From NCBI GenBank assembly GCA_046563655.1, contig CM102283.1, positions 6,882,001-6,946,000 on the forward strand: DNA of 64,000 bases. Direction: 5' to 3'. Origin of the DNA: Yuukianura sp. NJ FZ-2021. Taxonomy: Eukaryota. The notes under the pieces were generated by a model that was not told where the DNA came from, searched no databases, and saw only the letters and a list, made by a program, of their open reading frames with translations. Made by a program: the position numbers and the translations under genes. Positions 4,488-62,755 of the stretch are shown piece after piece. The first letter of the stretch is position 1. Every line of letters starts with the position of its first letter.

Positions 4488-7400
4488 ATGGCAACGACAG
4501 CCAATGCCTGGTTAGCCACATTACTTCTCCGCCTAGTCTATCCAATCGTGTTAATAGCAGGTGAGTTTGAACACTTTACTTGTAAGTAGTTAGTAGCTAA
4601 TTGCTGTGACCTTTGAATTGAAATTTAACCTTATGCTGGTTGTGACACGCAACGATTTCTCATGACTCCTGGAGTGTTGCAGTTCGTGCTCGGCACATGA
4701 CGCTGTTATTTCCGTTTTCTGTTTTTCAGAAAAGCTAGAGAGAGCAACAAGGTTATAAATTATGGACCACTTTTAACACAAGGAGAACCTTGTCACCGGA
4801 ATTTATTGCTCAATTCTTGTTATATTTTTGTCGAGAAATGTAACTTATAGGGGGCGTCTGTTTTTGTTTTTTTTAAACTAGTTAAGCTGTATAGATTTCA
4901 TGATTTTTCATTTTTACTGACCCGTAAAATGACCGCTAAAAATTAAAACATTTTAAAAACTCGTAAAAAGCGGAGAAACAGGAAGTTAAAAGGTTGTGGT
5001 TAGAAGAATTTGCGCTTCGTCAGCAACTTACAAAATTGCGGATGCTTTTACGAATGTATTTGTGCTTGATGTTGAAATTTGGCAGTTTGGCATTGATTGG
5101 CATCGTTGATCTTTGCAGTATTTAGCGTTGCGAAATCACAGCGTGACGTGATACGTTTTTGAGGCAAATCAGGAACAGTAGCGCGTATCTTCCTTTTAGT
5201 GGGTTAGATTTTTTTTTTGAAAAACCTAGTAAACGACGGTCAGAAAAATGGAATGATAGTAATTGTTATGTTATCCGCGTAGGTTAGGTTTGGTGTTGAC
5301 GGAAGACAATTACATTAGGAGTTCATTTCGGAAACATTAGGGAGAAAGTATCATTTTTATCAAGGGCTCAGATTCCAGCCTCGCAACTTTCACCACGCTA
5401 CGCTCTTGATGCTTCTATAACATTTGAACGCCCTTTCACTTTCTCCCCCACTATGTTTTTACCCTTTAGAAAGTTTTTTGGAGTTCAAAGACCGACGCTT
5501 CAGCGATTTCGTCTAAATCCATCATCATTTTGCTTTTTAAGTTCAGGTTTTCGTAAACTGATGAGTGATTTTTATAACTTTTTTTCTCTCGTTTTTCAGG
5601 AACGGTATTTAGACCTTCAGGAATTTCGTTTTTGTATTTGGTTCTGTTTCTCTACTTGCCATTTGTACCAGTACCAACCAAAATCAGCTTAAGAGGTAAA
5701 TCATAAACATCAATTAAGTTGGAAATTTTTTAGATTTTAGAAGGTTAATCCAAAATTTTGATTTTTTTTAAGGACACACTGGTCGATATTTGAAATGTTG
5801 TCTTCTCATCGCCTTTCTTACTGTTACTTCCCAAATGATTTTTCAAATTATACTCGTCGCTCTAACGCCATACGGAGGATTTTTAGCGACATGTAAGCTC
5901 TCAAAACGAAAAAAAAATCAAAAAATTTTGTTTAAACACGCCAGTTTTTTTGGAAATGCTAAGTTTTTTTTTTGTTTTTAGGCGAGCTTACCGAGAAACT
6001 TCTGCGACAATTTGGCCTCGTCCGTCTCAATGCACTCAATTGGGTTCAACTGATACGCTGGTTGGGTCCCGACTGTGCAATGCTCGTTGGCACTCTAGTC
6101 ACTTACCTTGTGATCAACAATATTTTGGACACTGGTGGCTCCGCCCCTCTGAGTCCACTGCCCGGAAGTGCACCAACTCCTGCCATTCCGTCCAGACCAA
6201 AGAGGCCTGGAAAGGGGTCACGGTTACTGGCACTCGTAGGCCCATACGCAGTTCTGGCCAGTCTCTGCATCACTTCGTCACTTGAGCCTTCCATTCCAAG
6301 TTCTTTCTACTACTTGGTGTTTCTGCTGGGAGCAACATGGTGGGCCATGGGTCAGAGCATCAGAACTCGGTTCTTTGCAGTTCTGTTTGCCCTTGTATCA
6401 ATGTTTGTCGTGGTTCATGTTACGGGTATCTATTTCTACCAATTTGAACTGGCTCAGGAGTTGCTAGCTGCACAGAGTCTGGAAGCTAGGTGAGGAAGCA
6501 TTCTAGTATTTACTTCACATTTTTCAGAAACGATGATTCATGGTGACATTGGATTGACATTTATGTTGTGTTGCAGACTACTTGGACTTGTTCCATTGTT
6601 GCTTACTAACTGTACAGGAGATCCACGAATCTCGATATTTAACCCTGAACTGTCATGGAATTCCTTTGTAAGTCCACTATGTCTCATGGCAATGTTCCAT
6701 CTACTGATCTACGAAATCAAGACTTTGCTCAAGCCACAGGTACTGCCAAAATTTTGAAATTGTCCTGAAATTAACTTTCATAATTTTAGTAACTGATAGA
6801 AAATAAGTGGTGGTGGGCATCGTGATGAGCACTTTGAGCATTAACTTCCAATACTTTCCAATTTTGACTAACTTTTGCTAAAGATATGGGATGGATTTGG
6901 TGCTGGTGAACTTTCACTAATAATCTTCTGCCTAAATGTCTCTCGTTTTCCATTTGACCTTTCAAATTTATTCCTTTTCTACCGGGAATTTTGAAAATAG
7001 CTCGTAAAATTTGGTTAGTAATGAATGACCTTTTCATTTCCGCTGAAAAGCTCTTGCGTGTAGCTCATTTTTGGAATGGAGGAAGCGTTTTTACGAGAGG
7101 AAGTGACCTAATTACTGTAACCAAGTAACTAACTGTTGCGTTTGACTCATTGGGTTAATTAGTATTGGGAATTGGGACTTGGTTACAGCATTTTTTGGGG
7201 AAATGCTGGGCTGGAGAATAATAATTTTCAAAATTTTATTAACAATTTCTCATTGGGGAAATTTTTATTGCTGCCATTTGCTAAACGATGAGCTAGAAGT
7301 ACTATGCTAGCATTATTGGAGAAGATCATCGGAGAATATCGAGTAGCGGATTGAGTGACAGGCAGCATCGCCTGTCCCGAAGACAAACTGTGAGATGGCA

Positions 7401-10400
7401 GTCGGGGTCACAAGGTCAAGGCCCGCCGAAGTCATCACGACGCGTAAAGAAATTCTGCTAGAATTTCTGTTCGTTCATTTTGAATTTTAAGTTCGGTGGC
7501 AGCAGCAAAATGAGCTTTTTAAAACTCAGCATGCGATTTCTCTTGAAAATTTTTGCATACTTTTAAATCAGACTTTTAGTTTTTAGTTTTACTTTTAATT
7601 TGCGTTTTGATTTGAAATGTGTTATTTGATCAGTTTTTTTTTGTTATTGGCCTGTTGATTTCGTATAGGATCTGAAGAAACTTAAATCCCGTATTGTGCC
7701 GAGTTCATTTACTAATTCCATAGCTTCTGCGGTGACCTCAATTAAATTTCCGAGTCGTCAAAATGGGCAAAATGAGACAACGCCTGTAATTACCTTAATA
7801 ATATTTTATCTTTAACTTTTGGTGGTGATTGGTGTTTTTTTTTCTTCTTACAAGGGATCACTGTATTTGTGCCGGAGACATTTTGAGGATAGTTGTAGAT
7901 GATTCTCTTCCTGTTTTTGTCGTTATGTAACTTTATCATGCTAAAACTTCGTAAATTGCGTAAATTTTTTTTTCGTCAATTTTGAAAATAATGTCGTACT
8001 GTTCATTGTTCCCAGGAAATGTGAAGTCGTCATGATATCTCATTTTCATAGTCAGAAATTTGTAAATTCTGGGACCATTACTGTCTCGTTAGGTTTTTTC
8101 TTTTTTTGTAATTTACACCGTGTTTGTCCTGTACGATTTTTGTTTTGTTGAGAAAAACAATCTTGAAATTTAGGGCATTGAAATCGAAATTGTGTAATTT
8201 TATCACTTCCCAGAATTTCACTTGTCAAAAATTGCTTTGGGTGTTTTTTGTTTTGCATAGTTGTCAAAATTTATGATGCTTTGTGCTTTTTTAAAAAATA
8301 TTTTTTTATGAGAATTTGGCTTGATGTAATTTTTGCTGGTTTTAATTTTTCAGCTACTGGCATATGCTCCAGCGAGACGTCGGTACAGTTCTGCAGGACG
8401 GCAGTATTCTTCAGAGGATGGTGTCGGAATGGCGCCTGACCTTCAGGAGACGTCGCTTGGTGGAAGAGATTCTGCTGTGAACATGAATCCACGCGTACTG
8501 ACGCGTGGTGTATCTGTTATGTCCAGGGATTCTGGAAGAGTGGCTTCCAGTCTCTCACCAAGTTAGACAAATTCTGTCAAGAATCGTTTTTGTTGAGATT
8601 TTTAAAACGGAGTTTTCATTTTATGATTTTTCAGATGATGCACAAGAACAAGAGTACGACGGATACGGACTTCTGCTGGCTGGTCTGTTCACTCTGTTTG
8701 ACTTATTTGCCAAGTCGTCTTATGTTGCTACAAACATTATCATGATGGTAAGAAAGCTGTTTTGATTTTAAAGTTTAAACATATTTTATTTATTTATGTA
8801 TTCATTTATGTATTATATTTTAATTTGGTTTTAGGCCTGGAGTATAACTTACCACAGTTGGCTGACGTTCGTTCTCCTCCTCTGGGCCTGCGTGTTGTGG
8901 ATGTTTCCAAATCAGCGCAGGGCAATGCTAGTGTCGTCTCCTGGACTTGTAATTTACGCCGAGTTTCTGCTGCTGGCTCAATACATATTCAGCCTCAATC
9001 TCACTGACGAAGAGCTACCACAGCAGGTTGATGGAATCGACTTGGGACAAGTTGGACTTGTCAAGCCAGTGACGAATGCGTACTTGCCAATTTTAGTCAA
9101 AGTAAGATCCTAATGATAGTAATTTACGGACTGATTCAAATCTCAAAAATATTTTGAGGTTGTTAATTGAATTTTTTGTTGGCTTTTCAGTCGCTTTATA
9201 CTTGTATGTTTTGGATTACACTGAAACAATTTGTGATGGAGCTGAAGGAGAAGAAGGCGACAATTCAAAATGCTGCCCAAGAACCTTTCAGAATCACCGT
9301 GAGCACAGCAGGAGGAAGCACGGGGCCCGTCTCCGGTAATTTTGTTTCTGACTCAGCATGCATGTGATTTTTTTTAGAATTGGAATGACGATATGTTTGT
9401 ATTGTGTTGCTCTCAGAATTAAAGGCTGGACGTACTGGCCCAGCGAGACCAACGTATATGATGAAAATTGGAACATTCGTGCAAGACATTATGACGAAGT
9501 TTTGGATTTGGGTTGTGGCTATTATGCTGTTCGTCATTGGTCTTGGAGGGGACAAAGTGGTGTTGTACCGAATCGTGTACATGGCGCTGTTTCTTATTTT
9601 TATTCTTACATTCCAGGTAAGATTGATCAATTCAATCCAATTCGTACAAAAAAAAAGTTTTTTTTTGTTGCCAATGTTGCAGTTGTCGTACCGCGTCTGG
9701 AGGAAAATGATGTATGGATTCTGGCTTACCGTGATCGTCTACTCTATGCTAGTGCTTGTCATGATCTACACGTACCAGTTCAAAAACATTCCCGAATATC
9801 TTTCAAATTATACGGGAATACCTACACAATTGTATGAAAAGCAGTTTTAATTCTAAAAATTATGAAGTGACGAGATTTTGACGATGATGTTGGATTTTTC
9901 TCAGGCAAACAGATATTGGACTGGAGATTTACGACACGAGTTCCCTGTTTGTGCGCTTGCTCACACCAACATTCTTTGTTGTCATCACCGTCGTACAACT
10001 CCATTACTTTCACAAAGATTTTCTCAAGTTGTCAGAAATGTCGAAACCGTAAGACTGTTTGAAAAATTAAAAAATTCAAAATTCAAGTTTAAGTTTTTAA
10101 GAACCTTTACTTTTTCCGAATTGCAGGCAAGAGCGGAAGAAGTCAGTGAGTCCGATCCCGTCAACAGATGAAGAGCCACCTCCACTAATTGATGATTTCA
10201 CATTTGCCAATTTGTTAAAAAATGTCACGTACTATGGCGTCATTGTGTTTGAACATTCGCTGAAGGTTTATGCCCTAGTATCAGAAATCGGTTGGAGGTT
10301 TCTGGAAATCCATATCATGAAAATCGTACTCTTCTCGGCTTATATGCTCAGCGTTTATGACGTAATTCAAAATCTATGTAAACTTAAGGATACATCTAAG

Positions 10401-13400
10401 TTGAAGTTAATTAACTTGTATTTGATTGATGTTGTTTTCCAGAGTTGTGCAATTCACTTTGTGCTGTTCGTTGGTGTGATTTGTGCAATGGCTGTGACGT
10501 CCGTACGAATCCAGCGCCTGATTACCCATATTTGTTCTATTTACATTTCTGGACTTCTCCTGACAAAAATGATTTACCAAATTGACTACATCAATCACGA
10601 GCAATGGACAACAAATTGTACTGTTGGTGGAGAAAATGTAACGAGAAACGATGCTGTCTGGGTCGGATTGACAAAAACAAATCATTTGTCATCTTTGCTC
10701 ACGGGCTACGTTGGTAAAAAAAAGAAACAATAATCACACTTTTTTAATGTTTTATGCTTATTTTTTATGCATGTTTTATGTTTTTTTGTTTCGTTTGTCC
10801 AGGAATGATTTTGGTCCTGACAGTACAGGCTGTGGTGCACATTCGACAGAGATATCAGCGTTACATGACCCGCATGCTGGAACCGGTCGTGGGCATTCTG
10901 TTTCCGAAAATTACAAGATACGATGCAGACAAAAGCATTCTGGATTGCGTCAAATTTTTACTCAACTACGGGTTTTACAAGTTTGGTGTTGAGGTGAAGC
11001 CTTTGACCTTTGAACGTATGCAGTTTTCTTTAAAACAGAAAGTATCGATTAACGTTTCATATTTCGGTTTCAGATTACGCTAGTGACGATGGTTGTTGTC
11101 ATTGGGACGAGGCTGGACGCTTTTTCAGTGCTGTATTCGTTTTGGCTCATTCCGATGTTTCTTATGAGCCGAGTGCGGCTGGGACGCATTTGGCTTCCAT
11201 TTATTGCTTTCGTTACAGTTTTGCTGCCAATTCAGTACATGTCGTGCGTTGGACTGCCTCCATTCATATGTCCAGGTACTTAAAAACGCACAAAAGTCAT
11301 GGAAGATGGAAAGTTCTAAGGGCAAGGTCAACTTTAATTTTGTATTCATGTTTTTGTGATTGACTTGCCTGTTTTTTTTTAATTTGTTGTTTCGTGTCAG
11401 AATATCCCTGGGAATCGTGGCCATATTTCAACCTTGTTGAGCTGAAGCAATGGCTCTTCTTGCCGGATATTCTTGTCCCACCGAAAGCCACGCGACTCAT
11501 TCGTAAGCCACATGAGAGATTGCAATCAAGATTAAAATTGCTCGACACCCACAGGAACTCTAATGTGACTCATTTGAGAACTTGATTTGTTTTAATTATT
11601 GTTTCCAGCGGACTTCTTTCTTCTACTTTTTGCATGCCAGCAACAGGCGGTGTTCTGGATTGAAAAGAACATTCGTCAAGATGACTTCCCGGGTGGAAGT
11701 AATCAAGAACTGAGCGAAATGTACATTCCACCTAGTGAGAACCCAACACCCGACTTCCTAATGGCCACCAAGTAAGGATTTCTGGACATGATGAATTGGA
11801 ATATAGCGTTTTTGAAATTTTGAAAAATTGTAATTTTAAATTGTTCGATTTTTCTCTAATGAAGGACGTGGCTAGATGTGATCAAAAAGTGTGTTTTTCT
11901 GTCCTTCTACTGGATTACACTTGCCATAATTTTCTTGACGGGAACAAATCGTGTGAATCTCTTCGCTTTAGGATACTTGGTTGGATCGTTCATTTTTCTG
12001 TGGGAAGGAAACGAGTTTTACTTACGTTCAAAAAGAGAGATTATCTCCAGGTCAGGTTTTCAAAATTATTTTCAAAAATTGTAACAATTTGTATCCAATT
12101 TTTTGAATTTTGATTCTTATTTTTTACAGGTGGAATTATTTGATAGCTTTCAATGTTTTCGTTGTGTTTTCCAAATCGATTCTTCAACTAGTCGGCTGCG
12201 TTTTCTCAGCTTCAACGTCATGTTGGGTAGTGCAACTCCTTGGAATTGCTTGTCTGAAATTTGCAGGCGATACAACTAGTAAGTCTAAGATGCTGAAGTA
12301 ACTTTTTTTTTCTGTCAGAATGTATTGAATAGCAAGTATTTCATTCATTTCAGGCGCTTCCAGCGATACTTGTCCAGCACCCCAGGGAGAAGCTGGTTTA
12401 ATGTGGGACGGAATTACTTTTGGATTCCTTCTGTTTCAACGCAAGATTTTCAACAGCTACTACTTTTTCCATATCCGATCTGAAACTGAAGCTCAGGCTC
12501 AGTTAGCTTCAAGAGGAGCGGAATTGATTGGTGAACTAATGCAGAAACAAATCAAGCAGCAAGAGGAACAGGAGAAAGACGTTTTGGAAAAAATTAAGAC
12601 CAAGATGGACAGAATCAAAGCTACGCATCAGAAAGGACGACCAAAGGAAATCCTTAACAATCATTTCGATGGTGAGTTTGATTTTGGTCTAAAATGGATT
12701 TCTGAAAAGTGAATTTTGAATTTTTGTCTTTTTGGAAATGTTCTAATTGATGTTGATTGTTGTGCCAAAAATGGGATCAAAACGAGGGTGCAAAAGATTT
12801 AGGCGTAAAGGTAACAAATTGGTTAGAACGTCGACTTCCATTTTTCGTTGACAAAGCGGCTGAAATTTTTTCTAAAAATGGCAAATGAATTGCTAACATT
12901 TTTTTTTGAAAAGTTGATTCCAGTGTCAGGACTGTTAAAAATTGTAACTTTTAACAGCGCACGATTACAAAGTATTGAATTGGAGCATGAAATGAATGTT
13001 TCATTGAAAATGTTCCGTCCTATATTGGTATAACTTGCACGTTGATGTTGACGTTTGTTTAGCTTCTTCTATGGTATCGTCTGTGTCAATGGATGAAGCA
13101 CCTATTATTGAACCAGATCCACCTCCATCACCAAGAGCTCCACTGGCAGTACAAATTTCTACTGTCATTACGTCTGGAAGTGGCCCAACACCAACGCCAT
13201 CTTCGGCTGCAATGACTCTGTCCGTGGACGGATTCTTTGAGCCACCTTATGGAAGAGCCTATGACCAGCGATATGCCCTCCTCCAACCCCCGCCACTTCC
13301 CCTATCACCTTCTGATGAATCGTTTCCTGTATTTTCACCACCACCGTATGATCATGCTACGATGGGCAGAGAGCGCATGACGACTGCTGGTGTCCAAACG

Positions 13401-16400
13401 TCACCACAACAGTATCGACACTTCATAACGACACTCAATTCTCCGGCTTTGTCTCACCACACATGTACTTTTTGTACTTCCAGAGAATTTTCAAGCTTTT
13501 TAGCAAACTCGTTTCGGTTTTTCGAATTTCGTTCTTTTTTTGGCAGTATCCGTTTCGCCTTTCATATTTCTAAGCATTTGAAAAATTTATGGCTGCCTAT
13601 GAGTTGTTTATTGTCGTTCAGTTTCTCAGTTTTTATTGGACGCTGACAGATGGATTTGGTTGCATATTGAGTTAGCATCTTGATCATTTTAGCTTAACTT
13701 TTTATTTCAGCGCCTCCTGTTTTTATGTACACTTTGGATTTTAACTTTGTGTTTTTGTTGCAGCAATTCGATCTGGAGACTACTACATGTTTGATGAATA
13801 TGACGATGAGGAGGACCTGGAAATGATTGATAGCATTACTGAAGAGGAAGACGAGTCTGAACTTGGCAAACCATCGGGAATGACTATCACTGAGGTAAAA
13901 ACTTTCTAAATCAAGTGATTTACACATTTGTGAATTGAAGTGATTAAAATTTTAATATTATTTTTGTGATGCAAATAGTTGATGGCCTCTGCACTTAAAA
14001 CGGGTGATGTTGAATCGGCTGCAGAAATGGCACGATTGGCTCGTCGTGGAAGTGATGCCCGTGGAGATGGAAGTCTAACGGAAAGTATGGCGACGTCTTC
14101 TGTTGCTGTTCCACGACGAAGAATGAGTAGTCGACGACGACTTTCTAGAAAAAGTCATTCGTTTCGAAGCGATCGGCAGCGCCTTCCTCCAGCAGCTCCA
14201 GCTCCTGAGCGCAGTGATTCAGATTACGTGGCTCCATTGGCCATTAGCGATGAGGAGACGAGTAGACTCACTGGAGCAGGGGATACGTTAGGAGGAGAAG
14301 AAGGTGGGGATGGAGGCGGAGATTATCCAGGACCAAGTTCGCTGGAAAGTGTTCCAGTGCAAGACGAACCACCACCGCCAGTACCCCCTCCAGCACCGAC
14401 GTTTATGAGACGAGTTTTGGCTTATCTTCGATTTGGGTGGGCGTTTTTGGAAAGTATGATGGTCAGCCTAACGGCATATTTGAACAAGTTTTCCAGAGAT
14501 TACCGTCATGTCTCAAGGTGTTTGGCGGAAGAGAAGCAGGAATTGAAGGTACTTACAACGTGGCTAACAGTTTCAAAAATTTTCATTTCATTTCGTATTC
14601 ATTTCGTTTGTTTCATTGTCTTTTTTCAAAATTTTCATTTTTTAGGAAAAAGAGTTGACGCAGCCACCTATTTTTGCTGTCCATTCCGGACATTCTGCGG
14701 ATCGGCTAGAGTCCGGTATTCGACGTCAAGATTCGGTTGAATTGGGCGAAGACGCTTCTGCACAAGAGCGACATACGGGAATAGATTTAACAAAGCAAGT
14801 GAGCACTGAAGAGTCTGACCTTGGTGGTTCTGGAGACGCTGGGAGCAAAGATGACTTGCAAACTGTTGTAATGAAACCGTCACCAATCAGAGAACGGGAT
14901 GGAATCGATGAGAAAGTTTCTAGCGCGTGAGTTTTTAGTTTTTGTTTCTAACAGCGTAGATCTTAGTGTTGACATCAAAGATTTTAAAAGTTTCTGTTCA
15001 CCAGGAGCTTGGATGAAGTATTGTCATCTCCAGGAAGTGAAACAACTTATCCACCGATTGTCCATCTTGTTGTGGCCATTTGGTATGTGATCATATCACA
15101 TTCGGATCTGGTGTGCTACTTTGTCGTTTTTCTGAACCAAATGAAGTCTGCCAGTATCTTGTCCCTCCCACTTCCACTGATGGTTCTTCTGTGGGGCTCA
15201 CTTTCCGTCCCACGCCCCACCAAAACGTTTTGGGTCACAATAATCGCCTACACAGAAGTGAGATTCTACTTTAAAATAAAGTTTTCAAAAATTTCGAACT
15301 AAATTTTTCTTTTTTATGAATTTTTTGTTGTTTTCAGGCTATCGTAGTTATAAAATATTTGTTTCAATTCGACTTTTTCCCATGGAATGATCCAAGTTTG
15401 CCAGAGAAGAAGGATCCGTTCACCCCACAAAAAATTTTGGGCATTGAGAAGCACGGTAAATATGCCGTTTACGATGTCACGCTTCTCATGGTCGTGTTTT
15501 TCCATCGGTAAGTTGGGCGTTCTTATATTTTCCTAGTGCAAACACGTCTACTGTTGCTAATTTCTGTATTTGTGTAGATATATGTTGAAAAGTCTTGGAC
15601 TCTGGAAGAACAAATCGATGTCCGGCCAAGAAACGAGTATTGTTGTGAGTGTGGAACAGTATCCAGTGGCAAAGACGCGTCCGAGCAAGATGAACGGAAA
15701 TGGAGATGAGTTCCACGACGCACTTTTGGAACCACTTGAGGATGATGGGACTGGAGATAAAGAAGAAAGCTCGGGTAGCGAAGAAGGATGTATCCCACCA
15801 TGGGACGACTGGCAACTTGGAGAGTCACTTGCATATGCGCCTACTATTTTCAAATTGTGGTAAGCTTAGAGTCATTGTGAAAGCAAATCTTTCCGCGAGA
15901 AGTGTTTTAATGGTGGTGTTGAAAAATACTTCCAGCATGTTGCAGTATCTGTCGTCTATTAAAACCTTCTTTGACCAAATTCTCAACTTGGAGTACAAAG
16001 TCAAAGTGGACGTTTACTCTTACATGTTCATCTGCGACTTTTTCAACTTCCTGGTACTCATCTTCGGATTTTCGGCGTTCGGGGTAAAATGTCAAAATTT
16101 TGAAACATGATTTTTTGATTCGGATTATTTCACTCCGGAACTTGATTTTATTTGTTGTAATTTTTTTAGTCTCAGCAAAACGACGTTACTTCGTATTTGG
16201 AAGAGAACAAAGTCCCTGTGCCTTTCTTGGTAATGGTTATCCTTCAGTTTGCTCTGATTGTGATCGATCGCGCACTTTATCTACGCAAGTACATTATGGG
16301 CAAATTCTTCTACCAAATGTTTCTGGTCACTTTCATACATATCGCGATGTTCTTCATTCTGCCTGCTGTGACAGAACGGTAAAACACAGATTATAAATAA

Positions 16401-18588
16401 TTAAAATAATAATGAATGTATAAATGACAAAATGTTTTAATTATAGTTTTATAAAAAATTTTATCAATTGCAGAGAGTTCAAAGCTAGAATACCACCGCA
16501 GATGTGGTACATGGTCAAATGCATCTACCTCCTTTTCTCAGCATATCAAATTCGATCTGGCTACCCGACTCGAATTCTGGGCAACTTTCTATGCAAAAAG
16601 TACAACTACGTTAACATGTTTCTATTCAAGGGGTAAGCTAACGAAAAAATTTATAATGTTGACCTCACTTGAACTCTGAAAATGTTTGCGTTGTTTCTAA
16701 TGTTTTTTTTTTGTATTACAGCTTCATGGCTGTTCCATTTCTGTTTGAACTGAGAGCTTTGATGGATTGGATTTGGACAGACACAAGTATGACCTTGTCC
16801 GATTGGCTAAAACTTGAAGACATATTTGCGCATGTATTCCAACTTAAGGTAAATTCTTTACACATTAAATGTGTAAAATGATGTATTTGATGTTATAATG
16901 TAATTCATTTGTGAAATAGTGCCAACGTCGAGTGGAGAAGGAGTATCCACAGGGGTGAGTTATTTATTATAGTTACTTCGGGTATCTGACTTTGCTTGGA
17001 TTTTTATTCGTATACAGGCGTGGAATGCCGAAAGCTCGCTGGTCGAAATACGCCATTGGTGGCAGCTCTTTGTTCATCATCATTGCCATCATTTGGTTTC
17101 CATTGGTCCTCTTTGCTTTGGGAAATACAGTTGGATTGCCCAATCGGCCCAAGGAACTACAAATTGAACTCTCCATAGGAAGCTTTCAGCCTATCTTCAC
17201 AATGACAGCTCAAAACAACTCTCTCAAAAAGTAAAAAGTCCTCTCAAGAGTTTAATTTCTTAAAATATTATCCAAAATTATAAATATTTGAATATTGCAG
17301 TTTCTCGTCCTCTGAGTACAATGCGCTAAATAGCGTTTTTCGGGGAGACAAGGATGCTCTATATTTTATCAGTGGATATGAAAGTGATGACATATCGGTA
17401 GCCCAATTCGACGGTAACTCAGACGCTGTTTGGGGAATTTCACCTCCATCGAAAGACAAATTGCTCTTAGAGCTTCAGTCTAGTAAGTTTTTATGGTTGG
17501 GCTTATAAAATTGTGTCCTTCCTAACGATTAGTGAGAGAAATATTGTCAAATAGATAGTAATCTTTTTTATTTGATTTTCAACAGACGAATCTGTGAGCA
17601 TAAGATTCTCGTACATGGTTCAGAGGTCCACACCCAATCCAAATCTTGGCGATACAGTGAAGGAGATGAAGGAAGTTCCTTTAGAACCTGGTACAAAAAT
17701 TCGGAAGCAACTAATTGAAATGATCAATGGAACTGCTGGGAATGATTCCGAAGTGAAGATTGACAGCATATTTCCAAAGTTTTTGAAAATTACTAATACT
17801 GGCAAGGCTCAAATTCCGGGTCAACTGAATACCAAAGGTATTTTTTCATTTTCTTGAGTTTCTGTAAGATGGGTAAGATTATAATTTTCGGTTTTGGTTT
17901 TTCGGGAACATAGTTACTGGGGGACCCAAGGGCTACAATCTGCGGAGTTTGAAGTTGAAGTTGATGGGAGCGCCAGATCTTCATGCCAATGAACGATGGT
18001 GGGACGTAGAAGAGGAATGTGACGAAGTGAGGTACAGTGACGTGTCGGATCCACTTCCATTGGACGACCACTGTACTAAAGACCATCTCAACATGTATAC
18101 ATTCAATGAAAAGTCGTTTCCTCCAACGCTCAGCCTCATTTCTGGAGGAGGGTATGTAATCCTGTTCTTCTTTTTGAAGTTATAAGTAGATTTCTTTCTG
18201 AAGTGTTGGTTTTTGTTTGATTTTTCAGAATTATTGGTCTGTACACGACTTTAGTTTTGGTGGCGAGTAAATTCGTTCGAAGCTTCTTCGCTGGCATATC
18301 TTTTCTAATTATGTTCGATGATATGCCGAATGTCGATCGTCTATTTCAGGTAACTTTTTGAATTTTTTTATTTAGTTTTGTGACTTTGAGATTGAAATTT
18401 TGAAAAATCCTTGTTTAATTTCCTAGCTATGCTTGGATATTTATTTGGTGCGAGAGAGTAATGAACTAGCTCTGGAGGAAGATCTCTTTGCGAAAATGAT
18501 ATTTCTGTATCGGTCACCGGAGACGCTCATCAAGTGGACGAGACCAAAAACAACACCCCCTGAGCTTCCAGCTATTGTTCCAGCCTAA
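4488..18588 (+). CDS. Piezo: Piezo mechanosensitive ion channel (many exons)
   Basis: Starts [19 protein letters not shown]; motifs [74 protein letters not shown]; stop TAA at 18586-18588. Confidence 0.97.
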
Positions 18589-18636
18589 GTACTTCCTGTT
18601 ACGCTTAATTCCAAAAATCTCTGGACAGAGACTAAA

Positions 18637-20941
18637 ATCTTTGTACAGACAGAGACTAAATTATTTATTGTTTTGTTTTTACTAGGCCTAAAACGTTGTT
18701 TCGCTTAGAATTAAATTAAAAGTTAGGTTCATCGATATTTGTCCATTGACTTGTACATCATAAGTTATGCATTTTCGCGGATGAGCATAGATTTTTGCAG
18801 TTGCGGAATACTAGGCCTACCAGAAAGGCCCATGCTAAGTCGCAACTCTTCGTTCAAAAGTCCAAGTACTTTGACCACTCCCTCCTCACCAGCGACTGTA
18901 AGCCCCCACAACGGAGCACGCCCGGCAAAAACCTTTAAAAAACGTCACACTTTAGCAAAATTTCAATTTTGAAATGGTTTTTTAAAAAAGTGTAGAGTGT
19001 CTTACCATGTTTGCTCCGAGAGCCAATGCTTTCAAGATGTCCGTACCACGATTGACACCTCCGTCCAAAAATACTTCACATCGTCCTGCCACTGCAGTCA
19101 CAATTGATGGTAAGGCACTTATCTGAAAACCAAAATTTTATTTCTTTGTTAGTTGATTTCAAAATTGCTGCATTTTTTAGTTTCCAACTCACTGTGGAGA
19201 CTACTGTATCGAGCTGTCTTCCGCCGTGATTGGACACCCAAACGGCAGCTACTCCAGCGTCACAAGCCAAATCTGCATCCTCTGGAGTCAGTATCCCTTT
19301 TAGTATCAGCGGTAACGAAGTAATGCTGCAATTTTTCAAAATTTTATCATTTAATTAATATTATTTTTATTTTTATTATCTTTTTATTGTAGAGAACTTT
19401 TACTTCTTGAGCCACTTGATGTCGTCCCATGTAGCTGAGTTCTCACAAAGCTCAGACCAAGTCACAATCTTCTGATACGTCAAATTCTTCATAGTTGGAT
19501 CCACATTTGGAATTCTGAAAACGTTTTGTGTCGACACATTTTTACGATTTAAGTCAAAATTTGAATTCGATTTCCAAAAATTTCCAATTCTTATTACCCA
19601 ATATGTGAAGGTAAAGTGAAGGGATTCCTGAGACATGAGCGTCGTTTTCCAAAATACGAAGCGTCAATTGTAACAACCAGTGCTTCCATTCCTGCGTTTT
19701 CAGCGTTCCTGATCAAGCGGAGTGTAAGAGCACGATCTTTGAGGATGTAAATTTGGACCCACCGACGACAGTTCGGAGCAACGTCGGCGACTTCTTCGAA
19801 ACTGCTATTATTTACTTAGCAGACTTTGGCAGTAAATTGTTCCAGCTCGTTCAGCCGCTGAGGTCAACAAGGTCAAAGGTCAAGCAATTGATTGCTTTTG
19901 CTTAGAATTTTTGTGGACTTTACCTTTGGCCATTGCTAACTCTCCTTTTGGATGAACCGCTTTCTGGAATGCTGTGGGTGAGATTCCGAACGGTATTGAC
20001 ACGGGTTTGCCAAGGACTGTCGTTTGTACACAAATGTTGGACACATCAACGAGGTTGCGTGGCAAAATTTTCCATCTGAAAATCAAATTTCCACTTTCTC
20101 AGTTTTCAAAGTCATTTTCGACCCAAACGAAAAGCTTGTTCAAAAAAAAAGTTAAAAAACAGTTCATACCTGAGGAATGCGTCCGAATTTTCTTTCAAAG
20201 TGACTTCATCGTCGCAGCCTCCGCGGTAATACTCTCCCGTTTCCGGACCGAGTTTGGCCAACGCTGCTGTCTTGAAATCTTCCACGCAAACAAGTTCCTC
20301 AAGATTCTCTCCAGTGAACTTCATGTTTTCCTTTTTTTTCGTCACAACATATTTTGTAACTGAATACTACATGCGGCATACCTACGCTATTTATTGACTT
20401 CAGAAATAATTACTATCACCTTCAAAACTTGTTTCGAGGGTTAGGTTTTTCAATTTCAATTTTTAATACGTCGATTTCTGATCAATTACTAACTTTGTAT
20501 GACGTGTGAGAATGTTTACCAATACTAACAAATTCGAAATCACGAATAGGCGTGCCTTTCTCCAAAAAAATCTTTCAGTTCCACTAAGTTCAGCATCAAA
20601 ATTTCATTCAAGCATTTCATAATCATGATGACGTGACCTCAAGCACATGCCAGTTGTACACAAGCAAATCGGCGGAGACCCAGTTCATGTTGAAAATATT
20701 GATTTTTCATGAAGATGGTTCTGGCCAAGGCGTCAATTCTCATTAGTTGACGTCAATCGCACTGACGTTGAGGGTTTTCAATTGAAAAGTTTTGAACTAT
20801 GACGAAATCTGGGCCTGATTTTATTTTTATTGAGAACTAATCGTAGCAAGGTTAACGGTAATTTCTAGATACAAAAATGCATAAGCTAGGAAAAGTGTAG
20901 GAAATGCTCAGAAAAACTTAGTTTTTCCTGGATGTTGACGT
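18637..20941. repeat. Copy 1 of a ~2.3 kb segmental duplication (HAO gene, its upstream region, peritrophin 3' flank)
   Basis: Aligns by eye to 24754-27019, from ATCTTTGTACAGACAGAGACTAAATT to TTTTCCTGGATGTTGACGT. Confidence 0.92.
18765..20324 (-). pseudogene. Hydroxyacid oxidase copy with frameshift and premature stop
   Basis: Same exon structure as 24882-26431, but exon 3 has a net +4 nt near 19805-19815 (minus strand CTAAGTAAATAATAGCAGT vs CTAAGCACTAGCAGT), reading CQSLLSK-stop-stop. Confidence 0.8.
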
Positions 20942-21211
20942 CTGCGTCGTCAACTTTACGGCGTCACGTTTTAGGCGTTCGCGTTAATTAATTTTGTTGT
21001 CAAATCCAAATGACACAATGCATCAAATTCGAATTAAGTTGGTTAACATTAAGTTTGAATTAATTGGAGTACAAATAAACTTAACATAAAGTAAACTAAG
21101 TAAGTATTTACCAAATTAGCTAAACTAACCTAATACACTATGCTGCTAACACAATGTGCAAAATTAGTTAGTCTTAAGTGTTGTCATAAATATACATTAA
21201 CCTCGCTAGCA

Positions 21212-21871
21212 TTAAGCGTCGTCAGAAGGAACGAAGAACGATTTGTGAATCCTAACAGGAACTCTGGCGCCAGGGATGATCATTTTGGAGAAGAGCATGC
21301 GCAGATCCTTGTCCGAGTCGATTCCCAGCATGATGTGTCGTGCATGGATGTCATCTTCGCCGTCCCAGTTGTACCCCACTTTGTCAAAAATGTAGCGAAG
21401 AAGTCCTTCAATGGTGCCAGAGAGGTATTGAGTAGCTGAGATGTCAATTGTCGTCCTTCCAGTCACGAATGCTTGCAGGTTCTCGCCGATCAAGTTCAGT
21501 TCTGCGTCGGGAGGCAGGATTGGCAAAGCATCTTCGGCGGCAGCACATTCCTGATGCTCAAAATTGGGCGTCGTTTCTGGAGGAGGGACTTCCGTTGCTG
21601 TTGTATCTTCCATGAGTTGGTCCTCCGCTTCGGTGTTCTCCAGAAGATCTTCAGATGGCAGTGCAGTTATAAGATGGTCTTCGTATGGACACGACAGCGA
21701 TGTCACCTCCACGGTGTCGAGTTCCACGTCAGCTTCGGCACTGCTCCTGGAGCTAGTGTTGATTTCATCGTCAGCCGCGGCGGTGCTCCAGCAGGTACTG
21801 ACGACTTCCTCCTCAGCGGCGACGGAACAACTGGAATCAACGCAGCAGTACAACTTCCAGTAGTCGACCAA
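21212..21871 (-). CDS. Acidic histone H2A-like ORF, copy A (5' end unresolved, possibly truncated)
   Basis: Paralog of the last exon of 22616-24000; C-terminus ...IHARHIMLGIDSDKDLRMLFSKMIIPGARVPVRIHKSFF resembles H2A alpha3/docking domain. No in-frame ATG before the internal QLMEDTT. Confidence 0.55.
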   Translation of the reverse strand: MVDYWKLYCCVDSSCSVAAEEEVVSTCWSTAAADDEINTSSRSSAEADVELDTVEVTSLSCPYEDHLITALPSEDLLENTEAEDQLMEDTTATEVPPPETTPNFEHQECAAAEDALPILPPDAELNLIGENLQAFVTGRTTIDISATQYLSGTIEGLLRYIFDKVGYNWDGEDDIHARHIMLGIDSDKDLRMLFSKMIIPGARVPVRIHKSFFVPSDDA

Positions 21872-22615
21872 AACTTACTCAACAAATATGGAAAAAATAA
21901 AAAACCAACTTCAAGGAAACTCTGAAATCGAAAAAATTGAAATTCTAACTCAACCAAACTTAAATTTGACCACAAAACTGAATTTTTAACCATACTTTCA
22001 AAAACTCCAACTTAAAAGCTTCAATAAAGGAACACATAACGCATATTCGGATTTGTTTAAAAAAAAGTGGAAATTTATTTTAGAACTAAAGTAAAGCATT
22101 ACTAATGAAAAATTCCAAGAACTACAGTGAGAACTAACTTTAAATTAATTATGTACAGTGTCAATTAATTTGTTTGCGAAACTAAATAGCATACATATAA
22201 AGTATCACACATAATGTACAAAAGTAACTTGAGTTAAGCTCATTAGTTTGCCTTTAGTAAAATTAATCATCACGCTAATCACAAATTAATTCCACATTGC
22301 TCACAACGGAGTTGTAAAAAACTGCAAACTAAAAACTAACATAACTTAACTACAAAGTATGAAAATAACTACAAATTAATTTTACAAAGTTGTATAAATT
22401 AATTTTGTTGTCAAATGACACAATGCATCAAATTCGAATTAAGTTGGTTAACATTAACTTTGAATTAATTGGAGTCTAAACAAACTTAACCTAAAGTAAA
22501 CTTACTAATTACTTAAACTGACTAAACTAACTTAAATCCACTACGCATATCTAACACAATATTCAAAATTAATTAGTCTTAGTATTGAATTAATTAAAAA
22601 TTAACCTAAGTAGCA

Positions 22616-24000
22616 TTAAGCGCCGTCAGATGGAACGAAGAACGACTTGTGAACCCTAACAGGAACTCCGGCGCCAGGAATGATCACTTTGGAAAAGAGC
22701 ATGCGCAGATCCTTGTCCGAGTCGATTCCCAGCATGATGTGTCGTGCATGGATGTCATCTTCGCCGTCCCAGTTGTACCCCACTTTGTCAAAAATGTAGC
22801 GAAGGAGTCCTTCAATGGTGCCAGAGAGGTATTGAGTAGCTGAGATGTCAATTGTCGTCCTTCCAGTCACGAATGCTTGCAGGTTCTCTCCGATCAAGTT
22901 CAGTTCTGCGTCGGGAGGCAGGAGTGGCAAAGCATCTTCAGCAGTAGCAAGCTCCTGATGCTCAAAATTAGGCGCCGTTTCTGGAAGAGGGACTTCAGTT
23001 GCTGTTGTATCTTCCATGAGTTGGTCCTCCGCTTCGGTGTTCTCCAGAAGATCTTCGGTTGGCAGTGAAGTTAGAAGATGGTCTCCGAACGACAGCAATG
23101 TCACCTCCACGGTGTCGAGGTCCACGTCAGCTTCGACGCTACTCCCGTAGCTGGTGTTGACTTCAACGTCAGCCGCGGCGGTGCTCTGGCATCTCGTCTC
23201 CACTTCCTCGTCAGCATGTACGGTGTCCTCCCATCCAGCTACAAGTTCCATGTCTTCAACGGTGTCCTGGCAACCAGCGACTTCTTGGTTTTCGGGAACG
23301 TTGGCGAGAAACTGCTTTTCCACATCGTAGAGTGACGCTAAGATTTGCTGGTTCTCTGGGTTGTCTTCTAGGGTCACATCTCCCAGGTCAAACTGCAAAA
23401 AATCCAACAAGAACTTCGTTAGTTTTCGATTATAATGCTGAGAATATTCAAAGTACGAAATAAATTATCATGTATTTATACTATATTATTGTTATATTTA
23501 TGTTTTATAAGTATATGCAATCCAGAATGAACTCTTACCGTTAAAAAACAAGTCGTAGGGTCAAAAGCCTCAAGGTGAAATATGGAGTGCTGGGAGTTCT
23601 CCAGCGGTAGAGTCTCCTTTGGTTCTGCTTCCGGTAGAGTATCGCTGCCAGTAGATGGAGCTGCAAAGAAACAAAATGAAAAACTGTAAGTTAGAATCAA
23701 GTGCTAGGATAAAAATTTTAGTTAAACATTATTGGTTAATCATGATTTGTATAACCTAACATAAGTAGACTTATTGAAACATTGTTTAGTAGACATTGTT
23801 AAGCATAAACGTTGTAATTCACCTTCATCAGTACTTTGAGTAGTTTCACTCGGGAAGACGATTTCATAGAGTGACTGGACCCAGTCGTCATCATAGGAGT
23901 CCAGAACTCCGGTGACCTCTTCATTCGCCATTGTCTCCGCCCAGTCAACATCAATCGAGCCAAGCAGTTTGGCTACATCTTCGCATGCCAGAGAATCCAT
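22616..24000 (-). CDS. Acidic protein with C-terminal histone H2A/H2A.Z-like fold, 3 exons, ~358 aa
   Basis: Exons 24000-23823, 23660-23539, 23392-22616 join in frame at canonical GT-AG sites (1077 nt). The last ~100 aa align by eye to H2A.Z (RTT, QYLSGTIEGL, IHARHIMLGIDSDKDL, IIPGAGVPVRVHKS). Confidence 0.8.
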
Positions 24001-24139
24001 TTTTGTTGGGAAGAATCGGTTAAAAGTAGCGATAATTGGAAATTTTAAGGAAGTTCGTGGAGGAGGTCCGTACAGCATGAGAGCAGAAAGAAGAATGAAG
24101 ACCTCAAAATGGAGTAGAGCCCGCAGGGCTTCCATTTTT

Positions 24140-24316
24140 CTTTGTTCTCAAAACCCCTCTGGCCATTGGCTATTCGAGAACAAAGAAAACCCCTGTGATT
24201 GGTCCAAGAGAACAAAGAAACCCCGTTTGATTGGTTCGCAGAGAACAAAGAAAACCTTCTGTGATTGGTTCTCCAGAACAAAGACAACTTGTTCTGATTG
24301 GTCCCTGGAACAAAGA
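24140..24316 (-). promoter_or_regulatory. Tandem array of five CCAAT boxes (putative NF-Y promoter)
   Basis: ATTGG at 24165, 24198, 24230, 24264, 24297 within a ~33-bp repeat GAGAACAAAGAAAACCCCTGTGATTGGT, 165-300 bp upstream of the ATG at 24000. Confidence 0.7.
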
Positions 24317-24753
24317 AGTTATGGCGGTTTGCTTAAGACTTAAGTTAGGGTTGATGAGATAGATGGCGTTGCTGAAGTTTTCTGCAACTTTGCAATTTAA
24401 ACTCAACTACAGCTGACTTTTGACCGATTACAATACACGCTGCAATTGCATAACTCTTTATTTTGTTGAAAAAAAAACTTATGATTTATATTACTTTATT
24501 GACATTATTGCTAACAACACGATAGAAAATATATTTAGACGCAGAAATTCGTTTTAGCGTCCTACGAATTCTTTGACTAAACGTTTTAAGTAGCCTATCA
24601 TCTTTTCATCCAATACGTCTCGTCGTATTGCTTTTCAACTAATCAATTCAATTCAACACTTTGAACATGCACGAAGCACGATGAACATAAGTTTCCTAAA
24701 TCCTAAGAAACGCAGGAACAGGAACACGACATCTCGACCTCACTAACACTAAC

Positions 24754-27019
24754 ATCTTTGTACAGACAGAGACTAAATTATTTATTGTTTTGTTTTTACT
24801 AGGCCTAAAACGTTGTTTCGCTTAGAATTAAATTAAAAGTTAGATTCATCGATATTTGTCCATTGACTTGTACATCATAAGTTATGCATTTTCGCGGATG
24901 AGCATAGATTTTTGCAGTTGCGGAATACTAGGCCTACCAGAAAGGCCCATGCTCAATCGCAACTCTTCGTTCAAAAGTCCAAGTACTTTGACCACTCCCT
25001 CCTCACCAGCGACTGTAAGCCCCCACAACGGAGCACGCCCGGCAAAAACCTAAAAAATAGTCACATCTTAGCATAAGTCGAATTTTCAAATGGTTTTTCA
25101 ATAACTGAGAAAGTGTTTTACCATGTTTGCTCCTAGAGCTAATGCTTTCAAGATGTCCGTACCACGATTGACACCTCCATCCAAAAATACTTCACATCGT
25201 CCTGCCACTGCAGTGACTATCGATGGTAAAGCACTTATCTGAAAACCAAAATTTTGTAAAATTTTGAAATTTCCAAAAAAAATTGAATTCTGACTCACCG
25301 TGGACACCACTGTATCTAGTTGCCTTCCGCCGTGATTGGACACCCAAACGGCAGCTACTCCAACGCTGCAAGCCAAATCTGCATCCTCCGGATTCAGTAT
25401 CCCTTTCAGTATCAGCGGTAACGAAGTATTGCTGCAATTTTTCAAAATTTTATCATTTAGTTAATATTATTTCATGTTATTAGTTTTTTTTATAGACAAC
25501 TTTTACCTCTTGAGCCACTTGATGTCTTCCCATGTAGCTGAGTTTTCACAAACGTCAGCCCATGCAGCAATCTTGGTGTATGTCAAATTCTTCATGGTTG
25601 GATCCACATTTGGAATTCTGAAAACATTTAAACGTTTTTTGAATTTTGCTTATTAGAAAAAATTAGATTTTGATTTTAAAGATTTGGAACTTATTTACCC
25701 AATATGTGATGGTAAAGTGAATGGATTCCTGACACATGCGCGTCGTTTTCCAAAATATGAAGCATCGATTGTAACAACCAGTGCTTCCATTCCCGCCTTT
25801 TCGGCGTTCCGGATCAATTCAAGTGTAGCAGCACGATCTTTGAGGATGTAAATTTGGACCCACCGACGACAGTTCGGAGCAACGGCGGCGACTTCTTCGA
25901 AACTGCTAGTGCTTAGCAGACTTTGGCAGTAAATTGTTCCAGCTCGTTCAGCCGCTGAGGTCAACAAGGTCAAAGGTCAAGCAATTGATTGCTTTTGCTT
26001 AGAATTTTTGTGGACTTTACCTTTGGCCATTGCTAACTCTCCTTTTGGATGAACCACTTTCTGGAATGCTGTGGGTGAGATTCCGAACGGTATTGACACT
26101 GGTTTGCCGAGAACTGTCGTCTGTACACAAATGTTGGAGACATCAACGAGGTTGCGTGGCAAAATTTTCCATCTGAAAACAAAATTTGCCAATTTCTAAG
26201 TTTTCAAACTCATTTTCAATTATTTCAATCCAAAAAAAGCTTATTTGAAAAAATTAAAAGAAGAAAGATGTTCTACCGGAGGAATCCATTTGAATTTTCT
26301 TTCAAAGTGACTTCATCATCGCAGCCTCCACGGTAATACTCTCCCGTTTCCGGACCGAGTTTAGCTAACGCTGCTGTCTTGAAATCTTCCACGCAAACGA
26401 GTTCTTCAAGATTCTCACCTGGGATCTTCATGTTTTCTATTTTTTTAGACAAAATATTTTGTAACTGAATACTTTAAGCAGAATACCTACGCTATTTATT
26501 GAGTTGTGTTTAAATTTGAATTTTAAATACACCACATTTCTGATGAATTACTAACTTTCTCAAACGTGAGATTCTCTAACAAGTTTTAAAAAATTCGAAA
26601 TCACGAACGAGCGTTTGTTCCTCTCTCCAAGAAAATTTTCCAGTTCCATTTAGTTCACTGCCATGATTTCATTCAAGCATTTCAGAAACAGGATGACGTA
26701 ACCTCAAGCACATTGCAGTTGCCAGCAGGCAACAGCACTGAAACGTAACCTTATTGCCGAAAATGTTTATGATTTTTCATGAAGGTGGGTCTGGCCGATT
26801 TGCCAATTCTCATTGGTTGACGTCAAAATTCAACTGACGTTGGGCGTTTTCAATTGAAAAGTTCTGAACGATGATGAAATCTGGGACTAATTTTATTTTT
26901 ATTTTGACAACTTGGTTCTATGCTTGGTTAACTTTAATTTCTAAATACAAAAATACATAAGTTATGAAAAGTGTAGGAAATACTTGGAAAAATGATTAGT
27001 TTTTCCTGGATGTTGACGT
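24754..27019. repeat. Copy 2 of the ~2.3 kb segmental duplication
   Basis: Aligns to 18637-20941; ends at the base next to the peritrophin stop codon. Confidence 0.92.
24882..26431 (-). CDS. Hao: FMN-dependent alpha-hydroxyacid oxidase (HAO/glycolate oxidase family)
   Basis: [75 protein letters not shown]; ends LIRENA-stop. Confidence 0.93.
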
Positions 27020-27802
27020 TTACGTTGTAAAGCGAACGCGTTTAGGACACTTGAATGAACTTTTTGGAACACAAATGTCACCATTGAAGACCTGCCCTCC
27101 TTGGCACTCCACATCAGTCTTGACTCCATTTATGCAAAAGTAGTACTTGGTACACCCCGAATCCACATCCGGGTAGAACCCGTTTTCTTTATTGTCACAA
27201 TTGCTCTTGTCCAGAAGTCTCTGATGAGTTTCAGCTTCGGGTTGACTCAAACACTTCTGCTGCGACTCGTCATAAAACTTGCCATCGCTGCACCTAAGTT
27301 CAATCACCTTTGCTTTTTGGTAACAATAAAAGTAACGCTGTGAGTTACTAACTGCATAGTAACCGTCGGGAGACTTAGCACAGGGGTTGGATGAGCCCTT
27401 AGAGCCCTGGGGGCACTTGACAGGGTCCGAAGTGCATTTGACCCCGTCGAATCTCAGTCCGGGGTCACAGAGATACGTGGCTTGAAATCCTGCAGCACAT
27501 GAGTAGTAGCTGGTGCAGTTTGAGGCGTAGTTGGGATAGTAGTTGTCAGATTTTCCAAAGCACGTGTCAATGTCAATACTGGAGGCGGTGGAAGTATTTT
27601 TGATGCTGAAATTTACTTCGCGCGAGGTGTAGCTGACGCTTCTCGATCTGCGCCTTCGTTGACGTCTGTCAAGCAGAAAGTTGTGGGAATTTGGAGAAGA
27701 ATTTTGGTAAATTTGCACGTTCGTTGGGAAGGCGCTGGTTTTGGCGTCAAAAATTATTTGAATTGCTGTGAATGCTGCTAGAAAAACAAACAGAACAAAC
27801 AT
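27020..27802 (-). CDS. Secreted chitin-binding protein with three peritrophin-A (CBM14) domains, intronless
   Basis: Signal peptide; three Cys-rich units such as CTSYYSC...CDPGLRFDG and CTKYYFCING...CQGGQVFNG; polybasic RRQRRRRSR before the domains. Confidence 0.88.
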   Translation of the reverse strand: MFVLFVFLAAFTAIQIIFDAKTSAFPTNVQIYQNSSPNSHNFLLDRRQRRRRSRSVSYTSREVNFSIKNTSTASSIDIDTCFGKSDNYYPNYASNCTSYYSCAAGFQATYLCDPGLRFDGVKCTSDPVKCPQGSKGSSNPCAKSPDGYYAVSNSQRYFYCYQKAKVIELRCSDGKFYDESQQKCLSQPEAETHQRLLDKSNCDNKENGFYPDVDSGCTKYYFCINGVKTDVECQGGQVFNGDICVPKSSFKCPKRVRFTT

Positions 27803-62152: not shown

Positions 62153-62492
62153 TTATCGTCACTTACTGGATGGGTAAGAGTGTGAGATAAGGTCCTCATG
62201 AAAGCATCGTATGACTGGTCTCATTCATTACAGTACATTTCTAAATTGACGCGTCTGGGCAGACGACGTCACATTCGACCTTCACCTGTTATTGCCAATG
62301 TCAATGTGAGGCACGGGTAATATTGACTGCAATAAACCGTCCGTAATGATAATAGCGAAGAATAGGGAAGTTTTGTAAATCACACTGAAGCCCCCCTCCT
62401 CCAAAAGTGAGCGGGGGTGTGTTCCCCCCACTTCCCCCCCCCCCGGGGTAGTGGGGGTATGTTCCCCCCACTTTCCCGCCCCCCAGGGGGTG

Positions 62493-62755
62493 TTGACAGG
62501 TGAGACGTGACAGCTGAGGCGTGACATGTGACAGGTGAGACGTGACAGGTGACACCCGGCAAGTGACAGGTGACACCCGGTATGTGAATGGTGACACCCA
62601 ATTAACAGGTGACAGGTGACACCCGGCAAGGGACAGGTGACAGGTGACACCCGGCAAGGGACAGGTGACAGGTGGCACCCGGCAAGGGACAGGTGACAGG
62701 TGACACCCGGCAGGTGACAGGTGACACCCGGCAAGTGACAGGTGACACCCGGTGG
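62493..62755. repeat. GC-rich minisatellite of GACAGGT / GACACCCGGCAAG units
   Basis: Directly visible; preceded by poly-C/poly-G tracts at 62390-62490. Confidence 0.9.

Follow-up and report, generated by a model that had tools for sequence, protein, structure and literature searches.

A predicted spliced gene for a putative H2A-descended histone-fold protein with a long acidic N-terminal region in Yuukianura

The stretch of Yuukianura sp. NJ FZ-2021 DNA analysed here (the window; 64,000 nucleotides (nt), positions 6,882,001 to 6,946,000 of contig CM102283.1, assembly GCA_046563655.1) carries, among ordinary animal genes for Piezo, two copies of a flavin mononucleotide (FMN)-dependent dehydrogenase and a peritrophin-A chitin-binding protein, a candidate gene whose predicted product joins a long acidic region to a C-terminal domain resembling histone H2A. 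The original prediction described three exons joining in frame to about 358 amino acids (aa) and gave no strand; translation of the minus strand yields exactly such a product of 358 aa, which also contains the C-terminal peptide quoted there. The start ATG lies at 24000-23998 in an A-rich context (CAAAAATGG). Exon 1 (24000-23823, 178 nt) would encode aa 1-59 plus one base, exon 2 (23660-23539, 122 nt) completes aa 60-100, and exon 3 (23392-22616, 777 nt) runs to and includes a TAA stop codon (22618-22616, as read from the sequence). They are separated by two short putative GT..AG introns with pyrimidine-rich acceptors, intron 1 at 23822-23661 (162 nt) and intron 2 at 23538-23393 (146 nt). The splice junctions are predicted from the sequence, and base composition follows the proposed exon boundaries, as judged from the sharp contrast in GC content between exons 1, 2 and 3 (0.49, 0.49 and 0.52) and introns (0.27 and 0.25); the 3' flank is likewise at 0.25. 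The open frame that holds exon 3 is 282 codons long, and about 7e-4 such frames would be expected by chance in the whole window.

The N-terminus could be longer by 45 or 26 aa if one of two in-frame upstream ATGs, at 24135 and 24078, were used. The GC content at third codon positions (GC3) of the upstream stretch 24001-24135 is 0.38 vs. 0.49-0.56 in the exons, which mildly favours an untranslated region (UTR) over a coding extension. The longer form starting at 24135 opens with a hydrophobic stretch that is readable as a weak signal peptide. As a separate observation, DNA contigs of two runs (X1 and X2) omit 139 bases within 23699-23839, so that they lack the final 16 nt of exon 1 together with the greater part of intron 1. 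On either side these contigs match at only about 90% identity, and the junction reads AG..TG, which is not splice-like; they represent either another, diverged allele or an additional copy in which exon 1 ends differently.

In its introns and 3' end the gene is unlike replication-dependent histone genes, which are intronless and carry a 3' stem-loop. As anticipated in the original prediction, the gene has introns, two in number, and a histone 3' stem-loop (Rfam Histone3) is absent at E<=10 in 20500-25000, where the three weak matches belong to other families. The sole AATAAA-type signal in the 3' flank (22079-22074, minus strand) lies about 540 nt past the stop, which points to polyadenylation of the mRNA and to a 3'UTR of that length. 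Judged by these sequence features, the gene is probably polyadenylated and replication-independent. Upstream of the start, a promoter-proximal tandem repeat (24176-24317, minus strand) consists of 4.4 copies of a 33-bp unit according to Tandem Repeats Finder. Each of four units holds a CCAAT box and then CTTTGTTC, which we take to be a Sox/HMG-type AACAAAG site on the opposite strand, and a fifth CCAAT (AGCCAATGG) sits just downstream of the array, near 24165. The pattern CCAAT-N8-22-CTTTGTTC has four matches in the window, all of them in the array, with 0.12 expected and none of 100 shuffles reaching four. The five CCAAT boxes (24150-24320, minus strand) are spaced at 33 bp, presumably about three helical turns, and the end of the array forms a near-palindrome around 24136-24189. 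By its layout the array looks like a built promoter module, and NF-Y-bound CCAAT arrays are known promoter devices, as described in the available part of PMC1802594.

The N-terminal region of about 257 residues is the most acidic part of the product. The whole protein has 78 D+E and 13 K+R, and the first 255 residues contain 64 D/E and only four K/R, in keeping with the earlier description of some 255 aa rich in D/E and almost free of K/R. The region (aa 1-257) is not of low complexity, every 20-aa block has a net charge of -2 to -7, and there are 12 acidic-aromatic motifs (D/E beside W/F/Y). The region is probably largely disordered. Its larger portion, encoded by the first part of exon 3 (23392-22922, minus strand; aa 101-257), has no detectable family or solved relative: Pfam gives nothing significant (only ADNP_N, at E=0.33), phmmer finds no matches in the PDB, and the ESM Atlas returns no usable match. 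The exon 1 part likewise has no phmmer match in the PDB. A second, H2B-like fold N-terminal to the H2A-like one, which would make the protein a histone doublet, finds no support in the sequence, with the proviso that a very diverged fold could escape detection.

The last 101 residues (aa 258-358; 22921-22619, minus strand; isoelectric point (pI) 4.9), on the other hand, bear a weak but consistent resemblance to histone H2A over a histone fold and docking segment. A phmmer search of PDB sequences with this query at E<=10 matched 189 distinct chains (best E=0.0055), and among the 60 matches listed, 59 are H2A, H2A.Z or macroH2A, the other one being a DARPin. As controls, five other queries drawn from this locus, namely the acidic part of 157 aa, exon 1 and three open reading frames (ORFs) that are antisense or in another frame, gave 0, 0, 1, 0 and 1 matches, with a best E of 0.63. 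The alignments, for example to 9pm0_A, 1zla_C, 8qz0_L and 1f66_C, are colinear over query residues 12-97, starting in alpha1 or alpha2 and continuing until the docking segment ends, and a two-sequence profile built from the gene and a truncated neighbouring paralogue finds H2A.Z at E=0.01. The features shared with H2A, H2A.Z and macroH2A are the hydrophobic pattern of alpha2, an R-H pair with which alpha3 opens, D-x-D-L at the turn between alpha3 and alphaC and, close to the C-terminal end, G-V-P...H-K-S; the hydrophobic core and docking domain line up with H2A.Z as first proposed. Placement within the H2A class is weakly separated, given nearly equal best bit scores (macroH2A 19.6, canonical-type 19.3, H2A.Z 19.2); H2A.Z alignments extend further towards the N-terminus (query 12-95), and the H-K-S motif matches. 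Features from the ESM Atlas point the same way. The top clusters score 0.91 (PF00125/PF00808; 178 of 256 features in common with the query) and 0.90 (PF16211 in 94% of members; 171 of 256), with the ten best family-bearing matches all in one family or clan, to be read with the caveat that 4-10 of 100 shuffled proteins reach 0.9 and a third of them obtain ten concordant matches.

A structure prediction for two copies of the domain adds a third line. ESMFold2 returns a symmetric dimer with a score of 0.50, against 0.02 for the best of three controls; no fewer than 74% of contacts recur between runs, and the partner has a predicted local distance difference test (pLDDT) value of at least 59. In calibration, the mark was reached by 21 of 30 microbial proteins solved as one-chain pairs and by none of 23 solved as single chains; for eukaryotes the figures are 17 of 29 (animals, 7 of 16) and none of 30, falling to only 1 of 7 for eukaryotic proteins without an older solved relative. 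The closest contacts link segment 25-28 of one copy with 57-62 of its partner, and residues 36/39 with 36/39. Placed on the H2A alignment, these correspond to L1 against L2 with alpha2 crossing, which is the geometry of a handshake dimer. The model suggests a histone fold and leaves self-association unproven. For the H2A fold as such, three individually weak lines (the PDB matches with their controls, the language-model features and the predicted dimer) agree, and Pfam and monomer structure prediction, to which we return below, provide no backing. On balance we consider it very probable that the C-terminal domain descends from histone H2A.

Few known proteins are as constrained as the core histones, and the surface of this domain departs strongly from that of H2A. 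With 14 D+E and nine K+R, the domain is itself acidic. Of the seven K/R that 8qz0_L, an H2A.Z chain, has in alpha1-L1, a single one is retained by our own count from the alignment. In the alignment to 1zla_C, L2 is short of three residues and has G-E-D-D in place of R-D-N-K followed by K-T-R, and alpha3 still opens with the R-H pair. Positions 56, 61, 64, 90, 91 and 92 of 1zla_C, which we take to be acidic-patch residues, align to E, Y, D, D, K and D, so that four of six are acidic. The alignments themselves thus display the missing basic contacts, an L2 turned acidic and a patch kept in part; the first reading of the locus had likewise described an acidic L2 loop and a partly lost acidic patch. 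The protein ends a few residues past the docking segment and has no basic tail, and the domain shows neither the basic N-terminal tail nor the basic alpha1/L1/L2 contacts of an H2A. Its alignment with H2A, H2A.Z and macroH2A is colinear from alpha1/alpha2 through the docking segment; unlike these, it is only about 27% identical and falls below Pfam detection, it has some 257 acidic residues in exchange for the basic N-terminal tail, and it lacks a basic C-terminal tail.

To our knowledge, H2A folds that have turned acidic on their surface are rare, with mammalian H2A.P as the main described example. According to the available text of PMC5880237, H2A.P (HYPM) is H2A-derived with a pI of 4.7, has lost loop-1 and loop-2 arginines, has acquired acidic residues where contacts with DNA and H2B are predicted, and has no known function. 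The acidic pI and the loss of basic loop residues are common to both proteins, and a cluster labelled 'Huntingtin-interacting protein M' is among the ESM matches, at 0.87. However, whereas H2A.P is described in the same text as short, intronless, eutherian and X-linked, with a truncated docking domain, the present protein comes from a gene with introns, keeps its docking segment at full length and is extended by a long acidic region, and it does not have the intronless, docking-truncated, eutherian character that defines the mammalian short H2A variants (H2A.B, H2A.L, H2A.P and H2A.Q). We regard the likeness to H2A.P as one of analogy, by convergence, and not of membership. A C-terminal H2A-like fold at the end of a longer polypeptide also occurs in viral and cellular H2B-H2A doublets and in large viral H2A-like proteins, as far as the accessible portions of PMC9145170 and PMC13088155 describe them; unlike those, our candidate has no second fold detected upstream, has introns and is surrounded by ordinary animal genes. 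No description of an H2A-type protein with both a long acidic N-terminal domain and a full docking domain was found in the open-access literature (subscription journals lay outside the scope). The original statement that no such H2A variant had been described thus stands for the architecture as far as open-access text goes, and needs correcting in that an acidic H2A has a precedent in H2A.P, with its pI of 4.7 (PMC5880237, available text). What appears to be new, then, is the combination of a long acidic arm and a full docking segment on an H2A-like fold, acidic H2A itself being already known from H2A.P. An independent invertebrate case would offer a second, differently built system in which to ask whether acidic histone folds serve in buffering, in evicting or outside chromatin.

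How might such a protein work? In the reading we prefer, an acidic N-terminal region of about 257 aa is joined to an H2A-descended domain of about 100 aa, comprising histone fold and docking segment. The domain would keep the hydrophobic alpha2/alpha3/alphaC pattern needed for a handshake dimer and could pair with a histone-fold partner, either H2B or a second copy of itself. Having lost most basic DNA-contact positions and being acidic itself, it would be unable to hold DNA. The acidic arm with its acidic-aromatic motifs might then act as a built-in DNA mimic that shields the basic surface of the partner, much like the acidic tails of chaperones, and the protein as a whole would hold or sequester histones off DNA in a histone-binding, chaperone-like or decoy role. 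Acidic intrinsically disordered regions of the histone chaperones Npm2 and Nap1 have been proposed to act as DNA mimics binding H2A/H2B (PMC10987829, in the part available). In those proteins the acidic region sits on a chaperone core, whereas here it would be fused in cis to a histone fold, and no sequence similarity to them was found. That the locus is a real, spliced animal gene and that its product, an acidic arm plus an H2A-descended domain, binds or buffers histones rather than wrapping DNA is, as a joint claim, one that we advance tentatively and rate at slightly under an even chance. A more specific version is a good deal less probable: a self-chaperoned 'anti-histone', in which the H2A-derived decoy pairs with H2B, or with itself and with H3-H4 via the docking segment, and its own acidic arm covers the DNA-binding surface of the partner. 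If true, this would be an encoded histone sink or nucleosome-disassembly factor, perhaps of the germline or early embryo, and a novel route by which a core histone turns into an antagonist of itself.

Several other explanations have to be weighed. The protein could take the place of H2A in nucleosomes as a genuine variant, loosening or unwrapping them as mammalian short H2A does, with the arm repelling DNA or recruiting factors, for example in germline or embryonic chromatin. Similarity in the docking segment reaches the end of the domain (query 95-97), by which contact with H3-H4 could persist, and the D/E residues at four of the six presumed acidic-patch positions in the alignment to 1zla_C fit this possibility as well. 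Despite their weaker contacts with DNA, short H2A variants are incorporated into nucleosomes, as stated in the available text of PMC5880237. Here, however, nearly all aligned basic alpha1/L1/L2 positions are gone, L2 is acidic and shortened in a fold of pI 4.9, and about 60 net negative charges stand in place of the basic tail; stable wrapping of DNA would be electrostatically unlikely, and we hold a nucleosomal role to be improbable.

To about the same degree improbable in our judgement is a non-chromatin role within a transcription complex, with the protein as a histone-fold subunit comparable to NF-YC, NC2-alpha or a TAF; the fold would then be a dimerisation module and the acidic, aromatic-rich region an activation domain. 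The 12 acidic-aromatic motifs in aa 1-257 would suit an activation domain, the top ESM cluster mixes PF00125 with PF00808, and the loss of DNA contacts in the domain is also in line with this idea. Yet the Pfam family concerned, PF00808 (CBFD_NFYB_HMF), gives no match, and the best matches are nucleosomal H2A, H2A.Z and macroH2A, including the H2A-specific docking segment, which NF-YC-type proteins are not known to have.

A less favourable possibility still is that the gene is a young duplicate or chimera, unexpressed or decaying and without current function. A truncated tandem paralogue indeed adjoins it (21874-21215, minus strand), equivalent to aa 157-358 plus 3' flank and without a counterpart of exons 1 and 2; its first in-frame Met would give a product of about 133 aa. 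The copy lies inside a segmental duplication, in which a block at 20986-21817 matches 22397-23215 of the main gene at 88.5% DNA identity and a second block, 18631-20953, matches 24748-27031 at 84%. The latter intervals are the two FMN-dependent dehydrogenase copies, which are hydroxyacid-oxidase-like, lie on the minus strand and flank the H2A-like pair; the resulting order of dehydrogenase, full gene, truncated gene and dehydrogenase is not that of a simple tandem duplication. That no relatives were found in the collections searched would also suit a decaying duplicate. On the other side, the 358-codon frame is intact over three exons with good splice sites, the structured CCAAT promoter array and the poly(A) signal are present, and the domain has an excess of synonymous changes. 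Over its 101 codons, gene and paralogue differ by six synonymous and four non-synonymous changes (omega about 0.20; binomial P of at least six synonymous out of ten, 0.015). Of two acidic stretches, one of 56 codons holds six synonymous and 11 non-synonymous changes (omega 0.53), and one of 42 codons gives 5.5 and 14.5 (omega 0.76). Among the differences listed for DNA contigs of other runs, four of five in-domain differences are synonymous, and the two indels listed in the acidic linker are each 3 nt long. Taking both sides together, we think it quite unlikely that the gene is a functionless duplicate. A high-copy or transposable element-borne family we reject, with low certainty, on a read depth like that of neighbouring intergenic bins and the lack of inverted repeats (none of at least 18 nt in 20400-24700).

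The last alternative, that the resemblance to H2A is due to chance or convergence and that the protein is an orphan acidic protein of some other fold, is best considered together with the observations that weigh against our preferred interpretation. Even with the cut-off relaxed to E<=10, neither the domain nor exon 3 is assigned to a Pfam family, which leaves the domain undetected by the histone and H2A C-terminus families named in the original prediction and below the gathering thresholds of both (PF00125 and PF16211); PHROGs and NCBIfam have no match either. The similarity to H2A is borderline, at about 19 bits and about 27% identity by a count of the match line, and the E-values from 0.005 to 0.01 are correspondingly modest. 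AlphaFold2 monomer models made without an alignment are uninformative (pLDDT 41 and 38), and one of these unconfident models has strands in the last 40 residues. The ESMFold2 pass may stem from a memory of solved histone dimers, in which case it would reflect likeness rather than binding, and, the ESM Atlas and ESMFold2 being related language models, their agreement is not fully independent. The substitution counts given above are small, and the figure of four in five holds among the differences listed. No orthologue was found among the sequence collections searched, which seem not to cover the lineage. Finally, a full HMMER scan of 1.84 billion representative proteins (2.4e11 residues in all) has a single match, a bacterial protein of 1846 aa built from Ig-like (Big_5) repeats, with E=3e-9 summed over six of them. 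These six near-identical repeats align to the domain at 27-33% identity, one of them at 33% over 70 aa, and by BLASTP a single repeat reaches 35 bits, which is more than any H2A reaches by phmmer.

We nevertheless judge the bacterial protein to be a chance match and not a relative, as 35 bits per repeat is below the estimated chance level, the alignment is gapped in the alpha2 core, and the E-value of 3e-9 arises because six near-identical repeats were summed. The case also shows how repeat proteins can inflate whole-sequence HMMER E-values. Against chance resemblance in general, phmmer, the ESM Atlas and ESMFold2 single out the same family among thousands, and the control queries from the locus come back clean; a chance or convergent likeness is, to our minds, as doubtful as a functionless duplicate. 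The silence of Pfam would rather illustrate that diverged histone-fold genes slip past routine Pfam-based annotation. In other collections, a word-indexed protein search returned no relatives with exon 3, nor with the domain at E<=10, and scans of metagenomes and of viral DNA returned none. Controls for coverage came back similarly empty: two neighbouring ORFs are absent by exact look-up, and a neighbouring 438-aa ORF has no relative at E<=1e-5. The collections therefore appear to be without this genome and its close kin, and the gene cannot be claimed as an orphan.

The remaining features of the window are of less direct concern. The Piezo mechanosensitive channel gene is large and multi-exon and occupies about 5900-18200 on the plus strand, with the Piezo_TM25-28, THU, anchor and cap domains found in successive ORFs. 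An ORF at 52554-53003 (plus strand) encodes a Tc5/pogo transposase DNA-binding domain (PF03221, E=5.9e-14) and is likely a transposon remnant. At 62282-62804 on the minus strand, two overlapping ORFs encode a short repeated peptide rich in V, T, C, H, L, P and G, which looks like tandem-repeat DNA and not like an obvious gene.

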